Of a stretch of DNA of 64,000 bases, positions 23,724 to 53,445 are shown one piece after another. Source of the DNA: Minisyncoccota bacterium (GTDB taxonomy: Bacteria; Patescibacteriota; Minisyncoccia; Phycocordibacterales; UBA918); the NCBI GenBank assembly GCA_021734905.1, contig JAIPIB010000002.1, forward strand, positions 38,167 through 102,166, read 5' to 3'. Position numbers and translations under genes: made by a program. Each line of letters begins with the position of its first letter. The stretch's first letter is position 1. The notes beneath the pieces were generated by a model. It searched no databases. It was not told the origin of the DNA and was given only the letters and a program-made list of their open reading frames with translations.

Positions 23724-23849
23724 CTTAGCCCCCCCCTTTAGTTTTGATCAATTCACTTCATATATTATGTCACATATTTACGAATATACAATAGCTTTCA
23801 TTTGACCATACTTTAAAATGCTTATACAATCATAATTACTGATGACGCA

Positions 23850-24040
23850 GCTGACACTGCTGAGGTGAGAGAAGAAAGCTACAATGACTTTGTAGTAAGT
23901 AGAACTCTCCGTTTGGCACGACACGCCAACGATGAGCGCTCATGTCGCATACGACAGGGAAGTAGGGTGGCACCGCGGCAAAGACCGCCCCTACAAATAT
24001 ATTAGTAGGATATTAATATGTTTGTAGGGGCATTTTTTGT
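23850..24040 (+). promoter_or_regulatory. T-box riboswitch leader (tRNA-sensing) upstream of the class IIb aaRS gene
   Basis: Conserved T-box sequence AGGGTGGCACCGCGG at 23964-23978 (consensus AATTAGGGTGGNACCGCGG). F-box-like CCGTTT at 23909-23914. Stem-I-like helices (gagag...ctctc with AGTA-containing distal region). Palindromic stem III (atgagcgctcat). Intrinsic terminator gcccctacaaa...tttgtaggggc + T6 at 23987-24038, 25 nt before the ATG. Confidence 0.55.
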
Positions 24041-24062
24041 TTCTATAAATAGATAAAACAAT

Positions 24063-25421
24063 ATGGAAAGAATACTTATCGCAGAGCTTAAAAATAAACT
24101 TGAACAAGAAGTTACCATTCAAGGATCAGTCAACGTTGTCCGCAATCAAGGCAAGGTCGCTTTTTTTGACTTTAGAGACCGAACCGGAATCGTGCAGGGG
24201 GTTATCTTTGGAAAACCAGAACTACTCGAATCAGTAAAAGTACTTTCACCTGAATCAACAGTTACCGTAGTAGGTACAGTCCATGCACGACAAGAAAAAA
24301 TGATTAATCCGAATGTGCAAAATGGTGATATTGAGCTTGAAATAACAGCAGTTACTATTCTCTCACTTGCTGAAGCATTGCCGTTTGATCTCGATGCAGA
24401 TCTTAATATTGATACACTCCTTGATTACCGGCCACTCACTTTACGACGGAAGCATGAAAAGGCCATCTTTAAGATACAAAGTGAAATAGTTGCAGCCTAT
24501 GGAGCATTTATGCGCAGAGAAGGATTCACAGAGTTCCAGGCACCAAAACTTGTGGGTGGTGATGCAGAAGGGGGTGCTGAAGTATTTAAAGTAGACTACT
24601 TTAATGACCATAAAGCGTACCTCGCAACAAGTCCACAACTCTATAAACAAATCATGGTTGGTGTGTATGAACGTGTATTTACCTTCGCAACAGCATTCCG
24701 TGCTGAAAAGAGTGCGACCACACGACACCTCAGTGAATATACGTCTCTCGACGCCGAAATAGGCTTTATCGAAGACCATACTGACATTATGCGTATCGAG
24801 ACTGCACTCATGCGATACCTAGCAGAGCATCTTCACAACACCACACCAACAGAGCTTGCGGTACTTGGAATGGAAATTCCAAAACTTGGCGATAAGGACA
24901 CGCCACTATTTCCTCACATGAAACTCAGAGAAGCACAGCAACTTATCAAAGAAAAAACAGGAAAGGACAAAACGAATGAACCAGACCTTGAGCCTGAAGA
25001 TGAGCGATGGCTCTGTGAATACGCGCACAATGAACTTAGTAGTGACTTTATCTTTATCACACACTATCCAGTCTCAAAGCGTCCATTCTATACGTATGAA
25101 GATGAAGATGATCTCGGCTTTACAAAAAGCTTTGACTTACTCTTTAGGGGTGTTGAAATTACGACTGGTGGTCAACGTGTTCATGACGTGCAAACACTTC
25201 AAGAAAAAATGCGCGCAAAGAAACTCAATCCAGAAAACTTTGAATTCTACTTACAAATATTCAAAAATGGTATGCCTCCACACGGCGGATGGGGCATGGG
25301 ACTTGAGCGTCTTACTGCAAAATTCTGTGGTGTTCAGAATGTAAAGGAAGCAACCCTCTTCCCGCGTGATATTAACCGCATTGACACATTACTCACTAAG
25401 AATACCGAGCATGCAGATTAA
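24063..25421 (+). CDS. aspS: class IIb aminoacyl-tRNA synthetase, archaeal-type aspartyl-tRNA synthetase (AsnRS not excluded)
   Basis: N-terminal OB anticodon domain. Motif 2 FRAEKSATTRHLSEYTSLDAEIGF. Motif 3/C-terminus GMPPHGGWGMGLERLTAKFCGVQNVKEATLFPRDINRI resembles archaeal-type AspRS (FPRD.NRL) more than AsnRS (FPRTPR). The T-box bulge UGGC predicts a G73-discriminator tRNA (Asp/Asn, not Lys). Confidence 0.75.
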   Translation: MERILIAELKNKLEQEVTIQGSVNVVRNQGKVAFFDFRDRTGIVQGVIFGKPELLESVKVLSPESTVTVVGTVHARQEKMINPNVQNGDIELEITAVTILSLAEALPFDLDADLNIDTLLDYRPLTLRRKHEKAIFKIQSEIVAAYGAFMRREGFTEFQAPKLVGGDAEGGAEVFKVDYFNDHKAYLATSPQLYKQIMVGVYERVFTFATAFRAEKSATTRHLSEYTSLDAEIGFIEDHTDIMRIETALMRYLAEHLHNTTPTELAVLGMEIPKLGDKDTPLFPHMKLREAQQLIKEKTGKDKTNEPDLEPEDERWLCEYAHNELSSDFIFITHYPVSKRPFYTYEDEDDLGFTKSFDLLFRGVEITTGGQRVHDVQTLQEKMRAKKLNPENFEFYLQIFKNGMPPHGGWGMGLERLTAKFCGVQNVKEATLFPRDINRIDTLLTKNTEHAD

Positions 25422-26929: not shown

Positions 26930-29900
26930 ATGTATCTACGGCGACAGCATTTTTTAGTATGTGCGCTTCTGAGTTGCATTCTTGTCTTTGCTCCGGTCTC
27001 TCACACACAGGCATTCTCACTCGATGACTCATCTCTCTGGAGAGGTACTGCGACACTCTTTGCCGGTGTGAGTTCTTTCACCTGTGGCAGTTTCTTCTCG
27101 TACATACTCAATCCACTTGGTCTCTGTGCAACGCCCAACTTTGACGGGGAACCACTCGCACAGAACGATACCCTCCATGACGCAATGGAGGGAATTGTCC
27201 CCGATGAAACACCAACGACCATACCCATTGCACCAACGTACATCACCAATACATACAACACCAATCCAACCACTATCGTACGAGACACAGTGAGAGAGGT
27301 GGTCTACCATACCGAGAGTAATACACCACCTGATCTCTCTCAGTTTGTGACCCGTGACTTCGTGAATAAACAGTCCAATAGAATTTATGATGTTCAGGGA
27401 GATGCACAGAGTACCAATGCTGCATCATTCACCACCAATCTCCTCACGGTATCAGGGGACAGCACCGTATCAGGACTCCTTACTGTTGACGGTGCACTCT
27501 CATCACTCGCATACACCTCTGCACCATACCTCACTGCCACAGATGCTGCTGCCACCTCTACCTTTGCGGGTAGTGTGACGGTTGATGGGCGTGTGGGGAT
27601 TGGGACGACGAGTCCAAAACAAAAATTACATATTGTTGGTAACGCATATACAGAAACACTCATTGAATCTTTGACAGCTGATTCTGCACTGGCACTAAAA
27701 TATGCATCTGGAAACACTGGTGGCATGTTCTTTTACTCAGGTGCCACTGCTGCTGGGTCACTATATGGAGGCAATGATAACAGTCTCAACTTACAAACAT
27801 ACACAGCAAGCCCATTAAAGTTTCTTACAAGCGGAACTGAACGCATGCGTATTTCTGATACTGGAAATGTTGGGATAGGGATAGCTTCACCAAATACTAG
27901 ATTCCAAATTGTAAATGGGTCAGTTTCCGGAAATGACGCTTTTGCCCAGTTCGGAAGTACAGTTGGAGGAACAGGTGAACTAGGCTTGCAGTTTGGACGA
28001 AGTGGAGCTACGTCTGGTTCATTAATAATTCAAGGAGTAAAAGAAGGTACTGGAGCAAATAATTTGTCCCTTCAACCAAGTGGAGGAAACATCGGTATCG
28101 GCACCACCTCTCCAACCTCTAAACTTACCGTCAATGGTGACATACGCATAGAGACAGGCTCAGGAGGACAACTCATCTTTGCAGACGGAAGCACTATGTC
28201 CTCAGCAGCACTTGGTTCAGCAGCAGCACTCTCAAACATCACAGACGCCATCATCACCGGAGACTCAGACACCAACAGTTCAGGTAATATACTATTCAAA
28301 ACCGGCTCCAATGACCGTATGACCATACTAAACAATGGAAATGTGGGAATTGGGACAGTGGGTCCGGGAACACCTCTCCAAGTAAATCACGGAGGAGGAG
28401 CTGATGGTACGAGGCAAAATGTCCTGACAGTTTCTACTGCCGGTTCTGTTACCTATGGTGGGTATATCGGCAATCGTGCTGTATCTGCAAATACGCATCA
28501 AGGCATGTTTATTGAGGGAGGGGGATCTTTAACCCTTGGAGCAAAGAGCTATAACATTGATTTTATAACGGGTGCAGGCATTACTGCTAGTGGCGATACA
28601 AATTTGAGAATGCGAATAGATTCTTCAGGCAACGTCGGCATCGGCACGACAGAGCCGGGCCTGCGTCTGGAAACAAAAGCTGCGGCCGCTGGACTACCAG
28701 CCACTTCTGGCACATCGCAAACTGGAATTATGCGCTTGAGTCAGGGGATTGGCACTGGTGTGGTTGATTTTGGTTTTGGCGGAACGGCTGGATATGGTTG
28801 GATACAGGCTGTTGATAGTGGTAATTTAGCAACCAACTATGGATTATTGTTGAATCCAAACGGCGGCAACGTCGGTATCGGGACGACGAATCCAACACAG
28901 GAACTGACAGTATATGGTGCAGGAAACAATTCTACTGAAATTAATATAATAGAGCCGGATGCAGTCTCCGAATCAATAATTAATTTTGGCGATTCCATGT
29001 CAGGGACGGCACGATATGAAGGTAGAATCTCTTATAACCATACGACTAATGCTTTAAATCTCAGCACAAATCATTTGGTCAGCACGCCCGAACTGACATT
29101 AAAGAATGGAAACGTCGGTATTGGCGTCGCGTCACCGCAGGCAATGCTTGATATTGTTGGTAACGATACCATTCTTAAAGTACGCGACACAAGAACAACA
29201 GGAGGTAACGCGACTTTACAGCTACAGGCAGAAGGTCAGCTTGCCCAGCTTAAATTCTATTACGGAGACAGATTCGCTATCGATAATGGTGGAGGAACGG
29301 AATGGCTTACAATAAAGCAGAACGGAAACATTGGCATCGGCACCACTTCACCACAGGCAAAACTAAGCGTAAAGGGAAGTGGCACCGGTTCAGGCTTCCT
29401 CGCACAGTTCACCGACAGCGCAGATAGTCCCAAGTTCACGATTTTGGATAATGGAAATGTTGGGATTGGTACGGCGATCCCAGGGTCAAAATTAACTGTG
29501 CAAGGAGGAAGTTCGGGAGCTGTTGATTTTGCTGTTATGCATTCTACTGGGAATGCGGGATTGTATTTCTCAACTCTTGCAAGCGGTTCTGGTAGATTAG
29601 TTTTTGCTAATTCCGCAAGTACAATAGTTAACCAAATCGGTATTTCAGATAATGAATACACATACTTCAATAATGGTAACGTAGGTATAGGAACATCGAC
29701 GCCAAGCGCAAAGTTGGATGTGGTCGAAGGAATTATTAGAATTTCGGGCACAAGTGATGCATTCGACCAAACTTTATCTATTCAGAATAATGTGAACAAG
29801 GTTCTTAAGCTTACTGTGGGTTCTAACGGTGGAGGGACGGCATGGTACACACAGCCAAACACAGGAACTCTCGGCGTGGATACTGGGATGGATTTACGTT

Positions 29901-32389
29901 TCTCGGCTGGCGCAGCGGAACGAATGAGAGTTACAAGCGCTGGCAACGTCGGCATCAGCACCACCTCGCCATCAGCAAAACTCGACGTCTGGGGTAATTT
30001 GAAAGTAGGCACCAGTTCAACCCCTACGTTGTTTGTTGATGCCGCGAGCGGAAACGTCGGTATTGGTACAAATAATCCTACTGGTAAGATTCAAATCTAC
30101 GACAATACTGATGCCCTAATACAAAGCACGATAGTAAACGATAGCGCAGGTACTTCGGCATGGTCGAGAGTGGGGGCCGGTGCTAGTTTCTCATCCACAT
30201 TCGTAGAACATTTCAGTAATAGTTATTCAGGTACTGGAGCAAGGCAAACGGGATCAGGAAATCTAACGACAAGTGGTTCTGGGGGATTGAGTATTTCTAC
30301 AGAAACCGCATCAACACCAATTCGCTTTTATACAAGTGGACTCGCCGCATCGAATGAGCGTATGCGTATCGATTCAGCTGGCAACGTCGGTATCGGGACG
30401 ACGAGTCCACAAGGTTCTCTCACTATCAACAGTGGTCAATTTACTGTCCCTGTTGGATCTGCTGGAGCGCCATCAATTACATTTAATGACGATTTGAATA
30501 CTGGTATATATCATAATGCGGCAGATATCATGTCATTCTCTGCTGGTGGAAACACTATTTTTGAATTCTTTAATGATACAAATGGGGCTATTTCTAGAGT
30601 CGGTCTTCAACTTAAAGGTGTTACAGCAACAGGCATACCGTCACTCTCTTTTGCTTCGGATGTCGATACTGGATTCAGTTCTCCTGGTGTTAATATCGTT
30701 AGTCTGATTACTGGAGGAAATGAAAGACTACGCATCGATTCAGCTGGCAACGTCGGGATTGGGACAACAAATCCGCAGCGTATTCTTGATTTATCAAATA
30801 CTAGCGGGGTATTTCTAAGAGGAGACCGAACAAGTGGTGCGGGCGATGCACTGACTATTGTAGGCACAGGACAAGCTGCGGTTGAGGGAGCTCGAATGGT
30901 CATTAATATGGAAAACACTACTGATGCGTCTTCTAATATACAGTTTTATACGCACAATGGAGCTGCACTAGGCGAGAGAATGAGGATAACACAAGCCGGA
31001 AACGTCGGGATTGGCACCACTTCACCATCAGGCTTACTTCATGTACAAAAAGATCAAAATAGCCCAACAAGAATTCAAATTACAAATGAAAACACTGGGG
31101 CAAGTTCCCAAACTGGACTTATGGTTACAAACTCTGCACTTCCAAATTATTATTATACCGCAGGTTTAATGGGGACAAATTTTTCAACAAACGGTTTATT
31201 TGAACCAAATAAAGGTGTAATTTCAGTTGGAGGTGAAATTGATGGGTTAAATATTTTCACACAAAAATCTACAGCTCCATTAATCTTTGGAACTAACGGT
31301 GCGGAGAAAATGCGCATCTCAAACACTGGCAACGTCGGGATTGGAACAACATCACCAACATCAAGGCTCGATATAAAACAATCTGTTGATGCTTTCGGAG
31401 GCGGTATAAGATTAAATCAAGTCGCTGACTCCGATTACGCAGAAATTGTTTCTGCGGGCGATAGGTTGGTATTTGGTTTGAATGGGTATGAAAGAATATC
31501 GATATTAGAGAATGGTAACGTCGGAATTGGAACAACATCACCAACATACAAGTTAGAGGTGGCTGGCACCATAGCTTCAGAATCAAGCGGTGCATACAAC
31601 CTAGGAGCAGCAGGAAGAGACTGGGGATGTCTCTATTACAACTCAGGCACTCTCGGTACCTGCGCATCCGACGAAAGGCTCAAAGAGAACATCAAAACAC
31701 TCACCTTTACAAATGGCACAAGTACTGCACTCAATAAAGTCGCAAACCTTGAACTCCACACCTTTAACTTCAAGAATGCTCCAGGAAGTACCTACAAGGG
31801 ACTTATTGCACAGGAAGCACTCACTGTCGCACCAGAACTTGTTGAACTCGGTAGTGACGGATACTACCGAGTGAAGTACGGTGACATTCAATGGCTCGTC
31901 CTTGAAGCACTGAAGGAACTGTATGGAAAAGTGCAGGCACTACAAGATAAGTTTGTTGATGGTGTGCTAACACTTACGAGTGCCAATGTTGATTATGTTC
32001 AATCACGTGAAATTTGCCTTAGCGACGACACGGGAACAAGTTGTATTGATCGACAGAAACTTCAAAGATTGTTAGAAGGGGATGATGCTTTAAACAATTC
32101 AGATCAAGACAATGTGTCTACATCACAAGATCCTGAACCGACAACTGACACTGTGGATGATGATACGACCAATACAGCCTCATCTAGCGCCCAAGCAAAC
32201 ACCACCACAGAAGTCACTACCCAAGATGATGAGAATTCTGACATTTCACAAGAACAAACACCTACTGAATCTGATGTTATAACTACTCCCACTGAAGAGG
32301 AGGTGCCTTTAAGTGAGTCGACGGTTGAAAATCCTACTACCACTGAACCTGAAGTGACAACTCCAACAGAGACATCTCCTACTCAGTAG
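26930..32389 (+). CDS. giant secreted repeat-rich fibre protein with C-terminal Peptidase-S74 intramolecular chaperone (autocleavage) domain and acidic T/P/E-rich tail
   Basis: 1819 aa. Signal peptide MYLRRQHFLVCALLSCILVFAPVSHTQA. About 20 tandem 45-55 aa repeats carrying [ER]MRI.S.GNVGIGTTSP..KL.V. C-terminal block GAAGRDWGCLYYNSGTLGTCASDERLKENI...YKGLIAQEALTVAPELVE...YRVKYGDIQWLVLEALKEL matches the endosialidase/tail-fibre chaperone domain (S74) with catalytic Ser at 31667-31669. Confidence 0.85.
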   Translation: MYLRRQHFLVCALLSCILVFAPVSHTQAFSLDDSSLWRGTATLFAGVSSFTCGSFFSYILNPLGLCATPNFDGEPLAQNDTLHDAMEGIVPDETPTTIPIAPTYITNTYNTNPTTIVRDTVREVVYHTESNTPPDLSQFVTRDFVNKQSNRIYDVQGDAQSTNAASFTTNLLTVSGDSTVSGLLTVDGALSSLAYTSAPYLTATDAAATSTFAGSVTVDGRVGIGTTSPKQKLHIVGNAYTETLIESLTADSALALKYASGNTGGMFFYSGATAAGSLYGGNDNSLNLQTYTASPLKFLTSGTERMRISDTGNVGIGIASPNTRFQIVNGSVSGNDAFAQFGSTVGGTGELGLQFGRSGATSGSLIIQGVKEGTGANNLSLQPSGGNIGIGTTSPTSKLTVNGDIRIETGSGGQLIFADGSTMSSAALGSAAALSNITDAIITGDSDTNSSGNILFKTGSNDRMTILNNGNVGIGTVGPGTPLQVNHGGGADGTRQNVLTVSTAGSVTYGGYIGNRAVSANTHQGMFIEGGGSLTLGAKSYNIDFITGAGITASGDTNLRMRIDSSGNVGIGTTEPGLRLETKAAAAGLPATSGTSQTGIMRLSQGIGTGVVDFGFGGTAGYGWIQAVDSGNLATNYGLLLNPNGGNVGIGTTNPTQELTVYGAGNNSTEINIIEPDAVSESIINFGDSMSGTARYEGRISYNHTTNALNLSTNHLVSTPELTLKNGNVGIGVASPQAMLDIVGNDTILKVRDTRTTGGNATLQLQAEGQLAQLKFYYGDRFAIDNGGGTEWLTIKQNGNIGIGTTSPQAKLSVKGSGTGSGFLAQFTDSADSPKFTILDNGNVGIGTAIPGSKLTVQGGSSGAVDFAVMHSTGNAGLYFSTLASGSGRLVFANSASTIVNQIGISDNEYTYFNNGNVGIGTSTPSAKLDVVEGIIRISGTSDAFDQTLSIQNNVNKVLKLTVGSNGGGTAWYTQPNTGTLGVDTGMDLRFSAGAAERMRVTSAGNVGISTTSPSAKLDVWGNLKVGTSSTPTLFVDAASGNVGIGTNNPTGKIQIYDNTDALIQSTIVNDSAGTSAWSRVGAGASFSSTFVEHFSNSYSGTGARQTGSGNLTTSGSGGLSISTETASTPIRFYTSGLAASNERMRIDSAGNVGIGTTSPQGSLTINSGQFTVPVGSAGAPSITFNDDLNTGIYHNAADIMSFSAGGNTIFEFFNDTNGAISRVGLQLKGVTATGIPSLSFASDVDTGFSSPGVNIVSLITGGNERLRIDSAGNVGIGTTNPQRILDLSNTSGVFLRGDRTSGAGDALTIVGTGQAAVEGARMVINMENTTDASSNIQFYTHNGAALGERMRITQAGNVGIGTTSPSGLLHVQKDQNSPTRIQITNENTGASSQTGLMVTNSALPNYYYTAGLMGTNFSTNGLFEPNKGVISVGGEIDGLNIFTQKSTAPLIFGTNGAEKMRISNTGNVGIGTTSPTSRLDIKQSVDAFGGGIRLNQVADSDYAEIVSAGDRLVFGLNGYERISILENGNVGIGTTSPTYKLEVAGTIASESSGAYNLGAAGRDWGCLYYNSGTLGTCASDERLKENIKTLTFTNGTSTALNKVANLELHTFNFKNAPGSTYKGLIAQEALTVAPELVELGSDGYYRVKYGDIQWLVLEALKELYGKVQALQDKFVDGVLTLTSANVDYVQSREICLSDDTGTSCIDRQKLQRLLEGDDALNNSDQDNVSTSQDPEPTTDTVDDDTTNTASSSAQANTTTEVTTQDDENSDISQEQTPTESDVITTPTEEEVPLSESTVENPTTTEPEVTTPTETSPTQ
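27590..31560 (+). repeat. in-frame coding tandem repeats (GNVGIGT units) inside the fibre gene
   Basis: Recurrent nucleotide units aacgtcgg(c/t)at(c/t)gg(c/g)ac(c/g)ac and peptide GNVGIGTTSP occur about 20 times. Confidence 0.7.
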
Positions 32390-51140: not shown

Positions 51141-52451
51141 TTAATTCTTCTTCATAAACTCGAGAGCAGCATCCATTTGTGGGTCAATATTTGCTGTTCT
51201 ATCATCAGCAGTTCTTTCAACAACAATATCAGGTGTCAAACCTCCTGCAGATATAGACAAACCATTTGGAGTAAGCCATCTTGCAATCGTTATCTTAAGA
51301 GATGAACCATCATCAAGCTTCACCAACTCCTGAACTGAACCCTTACCAAAGGTTTGTGCACCAATAATAGTTGCCACCCCGTGTTCCTTAAGGGCACCAG
51401 CAAGAATTTCTGATGCAGAGGCTGAACCACCATCAACAAGAACAATGAATTTTTTTGGTGTAAAAAATCCAAGGTTTTTTCCGGAACTTCGATAAACTTC
51501 TTCTTTGATATCATCCCCAAAACTCTCACGTACAACAGTCTTGCCGAGTGGTAAAAAATAACTCGCAATTCCAACAGCACTTTGGAGATATCCTCCCGGA
51601 TTACCGCGAAGATCAAAAATTAATTTTTTCTTTTTACTTTTTACAAATTCACGGAGAGCGTTTTGCATTTCAAGTTCCGATATAGCATTGAAACTATACA
51701 GAGAAATAATAAATACATCATCCTTTATTTCGGTCTTACTTGTCGGAATCGTAATCGTGTCCCGAATTACTGAAATAGTCAAAAATTCATCCTCCTCCGC
51801 TCGGAGTATTGTGAATGTTACTTCTGTCCCTCGCTCCCCTCGAATAAGTAGCACGGCTTCGTCGATATTCATTCCCTCTGCAGATTTATCATTAATTTTA
51901 AGGATACTATCCCCCGCCATAAGACCTGCATTTTCAGCTGGACTCTCTGGCAGTGGAGCTATAACAGTAACCAGATTATCTCGAATGCCAACCTCCATTC
52001 CTACTCCACTAAAATTACCACTGATATCTTCCTCAAACATTGAAGCTTGACTTGGAGGCATGTAAACGGTGTACGGATCGCCGTATGATTTTACAAGGCC
52101 GCTTATAGCACCCTCTAACTTTTTCCGTGTATCTATCTGTTCAGTTGTTGAAGACTGAACAAATTTTTGATCAAGTGTGTTCCAGACCCTCCAAAATTCA
52201 GTAAGGTCAATTGTATCATCAGCTTTTGCTTGTCTGTCAAAAAAAGAAAAAACGTTTGCTTCTAGGTTTGTGTTTCCGCCCAAATGCAAACCAGAAAAAA
52301 ATGTCGCCACCGCAAGGAGTACTGAAAGGCCAACACTAAGAAGTGGTAACGATTTCCTCTCGATTATCTCCTCCGTTGTCTCTGTCACAGTGAAAACATC
52401 ATCCTGAATTACAGATGGCTCAAGCGTAGTTACTTCCCTATTATCATTCAT
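51141..52451 (-). CDS. carboxyl-terminal processing protease (S41, CtpA-like)
   Basis: GNPGGYL and DGGSASASEILAGAL S41 motifs, with a PDZ region. The start is set at the internal ATG (MNDNREVTT..., TM anchor) because the first 98 aa of the track ORF look non-protein-like. Coordinate is +/-1. Confidence 0.78.
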   Translation of the reverse strand: MNDNREVTTLEPSVIQDDVFTVTETTEEIIERKSLPLLSVGLSVLLAVATFFSGLHLGGNTNLEANVFSFFDRQAKADDTIDLTEFWRVWNTLDQKFVQSSTTEQIDTRKKLEGAISGLVKSYGDPYTVYMPPSQASMFEEDISGNFSGVGMEVGIRDNLVTVIAPLPESPAENAGLMAGDSILKINDKSAEGMNIDEAVLLIRGERGTEVTFTILRAEEDEFLTISVIRDTITIPTSKTEIKDDVFIISLYSFNAISELEMQNALREFVKSKKKKLIFDLRGNPGGYLQSAVGIASYFLPLGKTVVRESFGDDIKEEVYRSSGKNLGFFTPKKFIVLVDGGSASASEILAGALKEHGVATIIGAQTFGKGSVQELVKLDDGSSLKITIARWLTPNGLSISAGGLTPDIVVERTADDRTANIDPQMDAALEFMKKN

Positions 52452-52533
52452 ATGTAATGAGATTATCTCATACTCTGCCCTACTTATACAAAAAATAACT
52501 TTTATATGGCACACCTTATGATAAAATATCCCT

Positions 52534-53445
52534 ATGATTGAACGTTTTACACAGAATAAAATTCGCTGGATAAATCTCAAAACACCAACTCCTGCTGAAA
52601 TAAAAAAGGCCATGACTGAGCTAGATATCCCGTTTATACTCATGAATGACCTCATGACGCCAGTTCCTAAAAATAGTGCTGTTGTCGTTGATTCAGTTAT
52701 TAAAATTACACTTGATTTCCCCGTTGTTAAACGTATTGATACCAATCATGCACATGAAGTTAAATACATCATTTCAAAACGGAGCCTTTTGACTGTCCAA
52801 TACGAAGAAATGGAAGCTATAGATAGATTTAAACGTCAATTTGAAGTTTCTGCGACACTCCGAAAATCGCAAAAGGGACTCACTGGGGCCCACCTCTTTA
52901 TTTCTTTAATAAATAATTTTTACGATAGTGCATCGGCAAAACTTGATTATATTGAAACAAAATTATCTGACATTGAAACAGACATCTTTAATAACAACGA
53001 AAAACAAATGGTGATAGAAATCTCAGAAGTAAGTAAAAGACTTATTCGTTTTCGACATGTTATGGGAAGTCATGCAGAAATCTTTGATGACGCAACACTT
53101 TTTTTAAACACTGTGTACAAAAATATTTTTGCGAAAGATTTGCAAGACATCCAGGGTCATAGCCTTCTTCTTACACATCGAACAAACACGCTTTTTGACA
53201 CACTTACCGCGTTACGAGAAACAAACATCGCAATGCTCAACACACGACAAAACGAAATCATAAAAAACCTCACACTGATGGCATTTATTACCTTCCCACT
53301 CAGTCTTCTCAGCTCAATGTTTGGAATGAATACCGAAACAACTCCAATAATCGGCACATATGGTGATTTTTGGGTTATTGTTGGAATTATGCTTCTCGGC
53401 GTTGTCGGTTTCTTTATCTTCTTTAAACGTAAAGGATGGCTATAG
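52534..53445 (+). CDS. CorA-family Mg2+/Co2+ transporter
   Basis: C-terminal two TM helices with GMN motif (SMFGMNTETT). Confidence 0.8.
   Translation: MIERFTQNKIRWINLKTPTPAEIKKAMTELDIPFILMNDLMTPVPKNSAVVVDSVIKITLDFPVVKRIDTNHAHEVKYIISKRSLLTVQYEEMEAIDRFKRQFEVSATLRKSQKGLTGAHLFISLINNFYDSASAKLDYIETKLSDIETDIFNNNEKQMVIEISEVSKRLIRFRHVMGSHAEIFDDATLFLNTVYKNIFAKDLQDIQGHSLLLTHRTNTLFDTLTALRETNIAMLNTRQNEIIKNLTLMAFITFPLSLLSSMFGMNTETTPIIGTYGDFWVIVGIMLLGVVGFFIFFKRKGWL

Follow-up and report, generated by a model that had tools for sequence, protein, structure and literature searches.

The window analysed here is a stretch of 64,000 nt from a Minisyncoccota bacterium (Patescibacteria; contig JAIPIB010000002.1), and all coordinates below are positions in it. 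The leader at 23838–24038 is a T-box riboswitch ahead of a gene for aspartyl-tRNA synthetase (AspRS; aspS), in which a decoding module of the translational T-box class is joined with a transcriptional-class expression platform. Taken as a whole, it is very probably a tRNA-Asp-responsive T-box that controls aspS by transcription attenuation and reads its tRNA with an atypical decoding module. We file it as a T-box variant that belongs to neither of the described classes. It lacks the long Stem I platform and the G·U wobble in antiterminator helix A2 and stays below the Rfam threshold, all other features of the family being present; with this architecture, the element is of greater interest than an ordinary annotated T-box. 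The anatomy of the leader, its conservation in relatives, the covariation in Stems I and II as well as in the pseudoknot, the match between codon and enzyme, and the geometry of the terminator were all established in the analysis.

The short Stem I, its specifier and the discriminator

Two sets of sequences were used for comparison. The first consisted of 80 related genomic loci fetched via the protein family, all in assemblies of Patescibacteria/Candidate Phyla Radiation (CPR), and the second came from one metagenome scan with a discriminator pattern whose fourth UGGN base was left free, giving at least 120 contigs. With a strict pattern, 22 of the 80 loci had a UGGC T-box core upstream of aspS; variant cores brought in another 4 (26/80), and the same leader preceded AspRS genes in dozens of metagenome contigs among the matches listed. 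Merging and de-duplication of the genomic loci and the metagenome matches listed gave at least 55 distinct leaders that share their first hairpin, a collection in which the leader was kept across AspRS proteins down to 31% identity.

The invariant upstream element in these relatives was not a hairpin with AGUA but a module of 29–30 nt directly after the promoter, with the consensus ACC-NNN-GA-N-(4 bp)-YUGACA(N)-(4 bp)-N-GA-GGU. In an alignment of 25 leaders (alignment A2), 97.1% of the cells of Stem I, comprising the C-stem and the 4-bp stem, were paired, 5 of 7 pairs changed on both sides, and none of 500 shuffles matched this result. The 4-bp stem occurred as GCAG/CUGC, GCGG/CCGC, GUGG/CCAC, CCGG/CCGG, ACGA/UCGU and ACAG/CUGU, around a UGACA loop that was invariant in the alignment. 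The kink-turn (K-turn) frame ACY-NNN-GA...GA-GGU was present in 25/25 leaders, with the C-stem paired in 98.6% of cells. There was no long Stem I of the kind that carries an internal specifier loop, an AG bulge and a distal loop (the double T-loop platform that binds the tRNA elbow), and a 4-bp hairpin stood in its place.

All 55 distinct short-Stem-I leaders had a GACA loop, a count to be read with the fact that the filter for this collection required GACA; a separate detector that did not require GAC returned, among the matches listed, no loop but GACA in Stem I frames adjoining AspRS genes. Wherever the gene downstream of a short-Stem-I leader could be read, again among the matches listed, it encoded AspRS, and the non-Asp matches of the metagenome scan were canonical T-boxes with a long Stem I before trpE, pheS, tyrS, leuA, argG and other genes. 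The specifier of the window leader is GAC at 23853–23855 in the apical loop of Stem I, and this settles the effector as tRNA-Asp rather than tRNA-Asn. One metagenome leader (L088:1040–1117) carries the loop CUAACAA, with an Asn-like AAC, in place of CUGACAA, together with a weak stem (CCA/CGG) and a bacterial-type aspS downstream; it is a single uninformative outlier, for which decay of the copy, a fault in the assembly and a real variant responding to tRNA-Asn are all conceivable. Separately, asnS had been suspected among 10 divergent 'AspRS-like' genes and was rejected, all 10 being AspRS.

The antiterminator domain was very conserved, and its rare variants in helix A1 were compensatory (GAGG/CCUC, AGGA/UCCU, AAGG/CCUU). 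Its bulge did not vary among relatives apart from 4 with UGGU, namely the short-Stem-I GAC leaders L090, L114, L154 and L156, where it would form a U·G wobble with G73. The UGGC of the bulge implies a tRNA with G73, and the prediction of a G-discriminator tRNA that the preliminary description had drawn from it fits the tRNA-Asp(GUC) of the related locus L019 (the sole source of tRNA-Asp, and a relative in which no T-box was found), which has discriminator G and ends in ...CAGCCGC-G. The sequence of the leader loop, CUGACAC, mirrors that of this tRNA's anticodon loop, CUGUCAC.

Between Stem I and the antiterminator, Rfam aligned 23867–23909 to Stem II, whose basal helix had 98.4% of cells paired and changes on both sides in 5/5 pairs; none of 500 shuffles reached its covariation score. 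The F-box-like CCGUUU lies at 23909–23914. Across leaders, the first helix of the Stem IIA/B pseudoknot (S1) formed a nearly invariant CG...CG frame, and the second (S2) always ended one base before the 3' strand of S1; relatives have, for example, CGG/CCG in S1 and UACGC/GCGUG in S2, against CGU/ACG and UUGGC/GCCAA in the window. In S2, 99 of 104 positions paired and 21 of 26 leaders were fully paired, compared with a permuted mean of 5.7, and the total was reached in 0/5000 permutations; this was a positional permutation, in which loops and tails were swapped among leaders, the alignment-free version being without power. The GAGCG and AAGU flanks of Stem III fit the published RRRxG...AA motif, and the 12-nt palindrome AUGAGCGCUCAU (23932–23943) overlaps this stem. 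The T-box 15-mer, CCGUUU, AGUA/GAA, the palindrome, the terminator and the ATG that had been listed beforehand were all found at the positions given for them. The leader's minimum free energy (MFE) lay at z = −5.4 relative to shuffles, and the earlier caution that the 15-mer might occur by chance with no Stem I gave way to an ultrashort Stem I that covaries. The features are collected in the table.

Table. Features of the aspS leader and its gene, in window positions
Feature	Position	Strand	Details
Sigma-70-type promoter, TTGACC-17-TACAAT	23802..23830	+	10/12 matches, pattern scan; ends 7 nt before Stem I
Ultrashort Stem I	23838..23866	+	K-turn, 4-bp stem, 6-nt apical loop
K-turn	23838-40 / 23864-66		C-stem ACU 23838-40 / GGU 23864-66; bulge GAU 23841-43; tandem G·A from GA 23844-45 and GA 23862-63
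4-bp stem of Stem I	23847-50 / 23857-60		GCAG / CUGC; apical loop CUGACA 23851-56
Specifier GAC (Asp codon)	23853-55	+	conserved purine A 23856 on its 3' side; expected partner, GUC anticodon of tRNA-Asp
Stem II	23867..23909	+	basal helix GAGAG 23867-71 / CUCUC 23905-09; upper helix 23879-84 / 23890-95; loop UGACU
Stem II S-turn	23874-76 / 23898-23901	+	GAA / AGUA
Stem IIA/B pseudoknot with F-box	23910..23929	+	S1 CGU 23910-12 / ACG 23918-20; S2 UUGGC 23913-17 / GCCAA 23925-29
Stem III	23939-23959, within 23934..23963	+	5' flank GAGCG 23934-38; 3' flank AAGU 23960-63; from MFE fold and Rfam alignment
T-box sequence and antiterminator	23964..23992	+	A1 AGGG 23964-67 / CCCU 23989-92; A2 GCGG 23975-78 / CCGC 23985-88
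T-box 15-mer AGGGUGGCACCGCGG	23964-23978		bulge UGGCACC 23968-23974 (7 nt, between A1 and A2)
Intrinsic terminator	23987..24038	+	20-21 bp hairpin 23987-24031, then AUUUUUUGUUU; U-tract 24033-24038; pattern scan
D element GUUUCUAUAAAUA	24039..24051	+	C-to-U degenerate copy of terminator 5' arm GCCCCUACAAAUA; can pair with terminator 3' arm 24019-24031, U-tract as loop
Archaeal-type non-discriminating aspartate--tRNA(Asn) ligase, 452 aa	24063..25421	+	NF003483, 486 bits vs cutoff 353

Expression platform, proposed mechanism and competing readings

The transcription start was predicted at about 23837, abutting the first base of Stem I, and a promoter of the form TTGAY-N15-19-TAnnnT ended 4–10 nt before Stem I in 21/55 related leaders. 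At the other end, the 5' arm of the terminator (23987–92) consists of the 3' strands of A2 and A1, an overlap found in all leaders, and the energies of the two alternative structures were −29.8 kcal/mol for the terminator hairpin and −8.4 kcal/mol for the canonical antiterminator. In 48/50 related leaders, at least five of the 10 nt following the stem were U. The terminator hairpin contains neither a Shine-Dalgarno (SD) sequence nor the start codon, the AUG lying 32 nt downstream of the hairpin (ATG at 24063). Terminators made of a hairpin and a U-tract also stand at the ends of neighbouring genes of the same genome, which is SD-poor: a GGAG-like motif occurred in the 25 nt before the start in only about 2/26 long open reading frames (ORFs) of the window. 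The platform has terminator geometry, not sequestrator geometry, and the leader appears to act by stopping transcription. The preliminary proposal of a T-box leader with alternative terminator and antiterminator was borne out by the RF00230 match over the whole window (E = 2.2e-05), by the overlapping arms and by the relatives. As a separate observation, the upper part of the terminator (23993–24025; …UAUUAGUA–loop–UAAUAU…) was kept in sequence, and not merely in pairing, across distant leaders.

In the mechanism that we infer, which comprises tRNA binding, the sensing of charging, a docking role for Stem II and a decision made during transcription, RNA synthesis would begin at about 23837 and the K-turn would bend the transcript at the base of the 4-bp Stem I. 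The apical loop CUGACA would then offer GAC and its purine to the GUC anticodon of tRNA-Asp, with no distal platform for the tRNA elbow, and Stem II with its S-turn, placed by the IIA/B pseudoknot, would clamp the codon–anticodon duplex by analogy with the solved actinobacterial ileS T-boxes. The 3' end GCCA of uncharged tRNA-Asp would pair with UGGC in the bulge and stabilise the weak antiterminator, so that RNA polymerase would read through into aspS. With charged tRNA-Asp, the stronger terminator hairpin and its U-tract would form, and transcription would stop 25 nt before the start codon.

Several results weigh against this interpretation. No specifier other than the Asp codon was found in the short-Stem-I architecture among the matches listed, nor any covariation of codon and gene across amino acids; the specifier is accordingly assigned by its conservation and by gene association, not by cross-amino-acid covariation. 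No tRNA genes were found in the 64-kb window, and no tRNA-Asp on any T-box-bearing contig. The first pair of A2 (G23975–C23988) is Watson-Crick and not the G·U wobble that the literature describes at the base of A2 as a conserved steric sensor of the aminoacyl group; in relatives this pair was G–C in most, G·U in L015, L064 and L006, and A–U in L009 and L010, and canonical T-boxes with G–C at this place were also recovered by the metagenome scan. In addition, transcriptional T-boxes are stated to require generally the long elbow platform of Stem I for fast tRNA capture, a truncated Stem I being a translational feature (PMC7583486), and a terminator-type T-box with a short Stem I runs counter to that generalisation.

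The Rfam score of the leader is a further point on this side. The check with RF00230 that had been suggested at the outset gave a match in the permissive scan (23833–23995, 39.9 bits; E = 1.4e-07 in a search of 401 nt), the sole T-box match within the 64 kb, whereas the scan of the whole window at the gathering threshold, which is 93 bits for this family, gave no match. The low score results from 74 of the 219 model positions being deleted in the alignment, which amount to the whole middle and distal Stem I, the other modules being aligned. When 19 loci were scanned at the gathering threshold, none of the 17 related short-Stem-I leaders among them gave a T-box match. The canonical T-boxes recovered in the metagenome scan served as controls and scored 78–125 bits with RF00230, compared with at most 40 bits for the short-Stem-I class, indicating that the leader scores low through genuine divergence and not through a weakness of the test.

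The alternative that survives best would add an obligatory second level of control through the D element, which follows the terminator. In the window, the duplex between the 3' arm of the terminator and D (T3':D) had an energy of −13.0 kcal/mol, compared with −4.1 kcal/mol in dinucleotide shuffles (z = −5.0; 0/300 shuffles), and an energy-based test gave p ≤ 0.05 in 32/50 leaders, in which the two strands covary. A part of D (24040–46, UUUCUAU) is complementary to AUGGAAA at the start codon (24063–69). This D:start pairing was weaker, with p ≤ 0.05 in 9/43 leaders including the window (p = 0.017; −7.8 kcal/mol as a duplex, −4.4 kcal/mol as a hairpin) and a mean z of −0.96; it was absent in L119, L141, L176, L192 and L198 and missing from an AT-rich clade. 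The Arg codon of the window is AGA, where relatives have CGA, and the change is matched by U for G in D. As a further layer of the mechanism proposed above, it is possible that D relays the state of antitermination to the accessibility of the start codon: in read-through transcripts, the freed 3' arm of the terminator would pair with D, which otherwise would weakly mask the start codon, and this layer would add translational control in an SD-poor genome.

In its strict form, this alternative states that attenuation is coupled to an obligatory relay from the 5' arm of the terminator (T5') to T3', D and the start codon, with translation only while uncharged tRNA holds the antiterminator. We regard such a dual-level switch as rather unlikely, though well worth keeping in mind. 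The conserved and covarying T3':D complementarity, the sequence of D in the window, a C-to-U copy of T5', and the significant D:start pairing of the window with its matched AGA codon speak for it. However, D:start is weak and lineage-restricted, the terminator outcompetes T3':D at equilibrium (−29.8 against −12.9 kcal/mol), and T3':D may serve another role, for instance in mRNA stability or protein binding. A broader proposal, which we hold to be slightly less than an even chance, is that Patescibacteria carry an undescribed Asp-specific T-box lineage that terminates transcription with no contact to the tRNA elbow, has members of about 100 nt, and uses the post-terminator strand as a relay to the start codon for dual control.

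Transcription attenuation also has to be weighed against a purely translational T-box of the actinobacterial ileS type, in which 23987–24031 would be a sequestrator controlling access of the ribosome. A decoding module made up of Stem II, IIA/B and an ultrashort Stem I, and the frequent insertions in A2 of relatives, are hallmarks of translational T-boxes, and D can pair with the start region in the window. We nevertheless consider this reading improbable, since the hairpin covers neither an SD sequence nor the distant start codon, a U-tract follows it in nearly all related leaders, and D:start is weak as a hairpin and missing from a whole clade; SD sequences being rarely used in this genome, there would be nothing to sequester.

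Within the attenuation reading, the preliminary description had taken the hairpin at 23867–23909 as Stem I of a canonical T-box, with GAC at 23886–23888 or AAC at 23903–23905 as the specifier. The pairing with AGUA elements on which it had relied is indeed present, the AGUA/GAA internal loop resembles the S-turn of a specifier loop, and the hairpin holds both triplets, but it belongs to Stem II and not to Stem I, in agreement with the Rfam alignment. Comparison with relatives refuted both candidates: the GAC lies in the terminal loop of Stem II, which differs in sequence and length in every relative, and the final C of the AAC is paired in the basal helix, the triplet being ACC, AAU or ACU elsewhere. 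Moreover, about 23 of 55 related leaders have no AGUA hairpin, yet their first hairpin retains GACA in its apical loop, which leaves the canonical assignment with very little probability, the real GAC being that of the short Stem I. Finally, a decaying, non-functional relic or a chance resemblance, to which the low Rfam score, the missing distal Stem I and the G–C in place of G·U in A2 might point, can practically be dismissed in view of the E value over the window, the conservation of 55 distinct leaders ahead of highly diverged AspRS proteins, the compensatory changes in four helices and the invariance of codon loop and bulge.

Natural deletions and relation to known T-boxes

The related leaders formed a natural deletion series, from Stems I, II and III, through I and III, to Stem I alone. 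About 32/55 leaders had Stem I, Stem II (with IIA/B) and Stem III, and about 13/55 had Stem I and Stem III only (for instance L013:2829–2938, L018:2829–2931, L034:2509–2612, L157, L006 and L007). In the remaining group of about 10/55 (L026, L028, L029, L031 (2831–2932), L032, L115, L121, L128, L142 and L184), Stem I was followed by a purine-rich linker of 25 nt (AAUGAG-NNN-AAAGU) and the discriminator, with neither Stem II, IIA/B nor Stem III, and the leaders measured about 100 nt from the K-turn to A1. These minimal leaders kept the covarying helices of Stem I, usually had a hairpin inserted in helix A2, and gave no RF00230 match at E ≤ 0.01. They may be the smallest natural T-boxes, a rank that, if the lineage is as proposed above, would go to the members of about 100 nt that lack Stem II and in part also Stem III.

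An ultrashort Stem I with the specifier in its apical loop is known from actinobacterial ileS T-boxes that regulate translation (2020 review, PMC7583486), and the 'ultrashort' class is credited to Sherwood et al. 2015, as relayed in PMC7583486. Those of Mycobacterium tuberculosis and Nocardia farcinica (structures 6UFG and 6UFM, cited there) resemble the window leader in the K-turn, the very short Stem I, the specifier and purine in the apical loop, the absence of an elbow-binding platform, the Stem II with S-turn, the IIA/B pseudoknot, Stem III and the discriminator. Both typically occur as the sole T-box of a genome or as one of very few, and A2 insertions are common in relatives of both. 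They differ in that the ileS T-boxes combine an SD sequestrator with AUC (Ile), ileS and an actinobacterial host, whereas the window leader combines a terminator of hairpin and U-tract with GAC, aspS and Patescibacteria. In addition, Stem II and Stem III are reported as essential in the ileS class, whereas some relatives of the window leader have lost both.

Compared with canonical class I T-boxes (Bacillus subtilis tyrS type), the leader has in common the UGGN bulge, the mutually exclusive antiterminator and terminator, the U-tract, the K-turn, Stem II, the F-box pseudoknot and Stem III, and in both the specifier fits the regulated synthetase and UGGN fits the discriminator base. Unlike them, its Stem I has no internal specifier loop, AG bulge or distal loop, and its first A2 pair is G–C instead of G·U. 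The glyQS leaders of Bacillus and Geobacillus are natural minimal transcriptional T-boxes that have no Stem II and, like the window leader, act with a terminator; the relatives L013, L018 and L034 resemble them in passing from Stem I straight to Stem III and the discriminator. However, glyQS keeps the long elbow platform of Stem I and a strong GGC:GCC duplex, both of which are missing from the leaders of Patescibacteria, and the window leader does have Stem II. The 'stem Sa' of staphylococcal glyS (PMC9177973) is a lineage-specific hairpin in apical A2, as is found in most relatives of the leader (L001, L013, L031); the staphylococcal glyS T-box has a canonical long Stem I, and the A2 loop of the window leader is a plain one of 6 nt.

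T-boxes are a model case of one RNA recognising another structured RNA, and several published rules concern the very parts lost here. Stem III is described as indispensable for the discriminator, and published structures show a short Stem I working jointly with Stem II and IIA/B (PMC7583486). According to current reviews, shortening of Stem I makes Stem II essential, and only translational switches, which are slower, can do with a short Stem I. A short Stem I joined to a terminator, together with the deletion series in relatives, makes the rules of the reviews directly testable with short natural sequences. The reported distribution of T-boxes covers Firmicutes, Actinobacteria, Chloroflexi and Deinococcus-Thermus, the class II model of TBDB was built from Actinobacteria alone, and no T-box report for Patescibacteria, CPR, Parcubacteria or Saccharibacteria was found in the literature searches. 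The host thus departs from the expectation, voiced at the start, of Firmicutes and a few other phyla, as Patescibacteria/CPR are not a phylum classically credited with T-boxes. With this leader, T-box regulation reaches into the ultrasmall, host-dependent CPR bacteria, about whose control of genes hardly anything is known, and leaders of this kind are missed by the Rfam gathering score. It also points to the charging of tRNA-Asp with aspartate as the sole amino acid signal kept under RNA control in these reduced genomes.

The regulated gene and its surroundings

The synthetase gene was assigned to NF003483 well above the cutoff, as expected from the archaeal-type and possibly non-discriminating AspRS that had been read from its C-terminus. 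The protein is 100% identical to that of a 'Candidatus Pacebacteria bacterium' metagenome-assembled genome, and its relatives are annotated as Kaiserbacteria. By its NCBIfam assignment, the enzyme is putatively non-discriminating rather than discriminating; among window ORFs of 420–540 aa, no candidates for gatA, gatB or asnS were found. The aminoacyl-tRNA synthetase genes of the window are trpS (20780), aspS (24063), gltX (38284) and cysS (53524), with a T-box at aspS only.

Across the relatives, the leader precedes two types of AspRS, the archaeal-type non-discriminating enzyme and a short bacterial-type enzyme (NF001750, 566–631 bits) that is 31–35% identical to the window protein. In the metagenome loci L097, L099, L114, L125, L141, L175 and L184, the bacterial-type AspRS is about 465–480 aa long, matches NF001750 in two stretches and apparently has no usual insertion domain. 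Further genes were seen between leader and aspS in some loci. The Peptidase_S51 family (aspartyl dipeptidase/cyanophycinase) includes aspartyl dipeptidase E, and a gene of this family lies between them at L073:2297–2965, in one operon with aspS. At L009:2610–2978, L016:2698–2997, L017:2726–3004 and L034:2655–2990, an ORF of 92–122 aa with no Pfam match is found between the T-box and aspS. At L069:961–1060, a short-Stem-I GAC leader whose core is the variant AGGAUGGCACC stands at a distance of 2 kb upstream from aspS, followed by an ORF of 237 aa, whose N-terminus is hydrophobic and signal-peptide-like by eye, and one of 296 aa, neither of which has a Pfam match; this locus is possibly a longer T-box-controlled operon.

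Elsewhere in the window, the positions 51290–51590 (+) gave a match to the Rickettsia sRNA47 family of Rfam (31.8 bits, below the gathering score of 60; E = 0.0002) opposite an S41 peptidase ORF at 51141–52745 (−), which is probably compositional. Two genes downstream of aspS, at 26930–32389 (+), there is an ORF of 1819 aa with repeated units of the form 'GNVGIGT...P..KL.V' and a tail rich in Ser, Thr, Pro and Glu.

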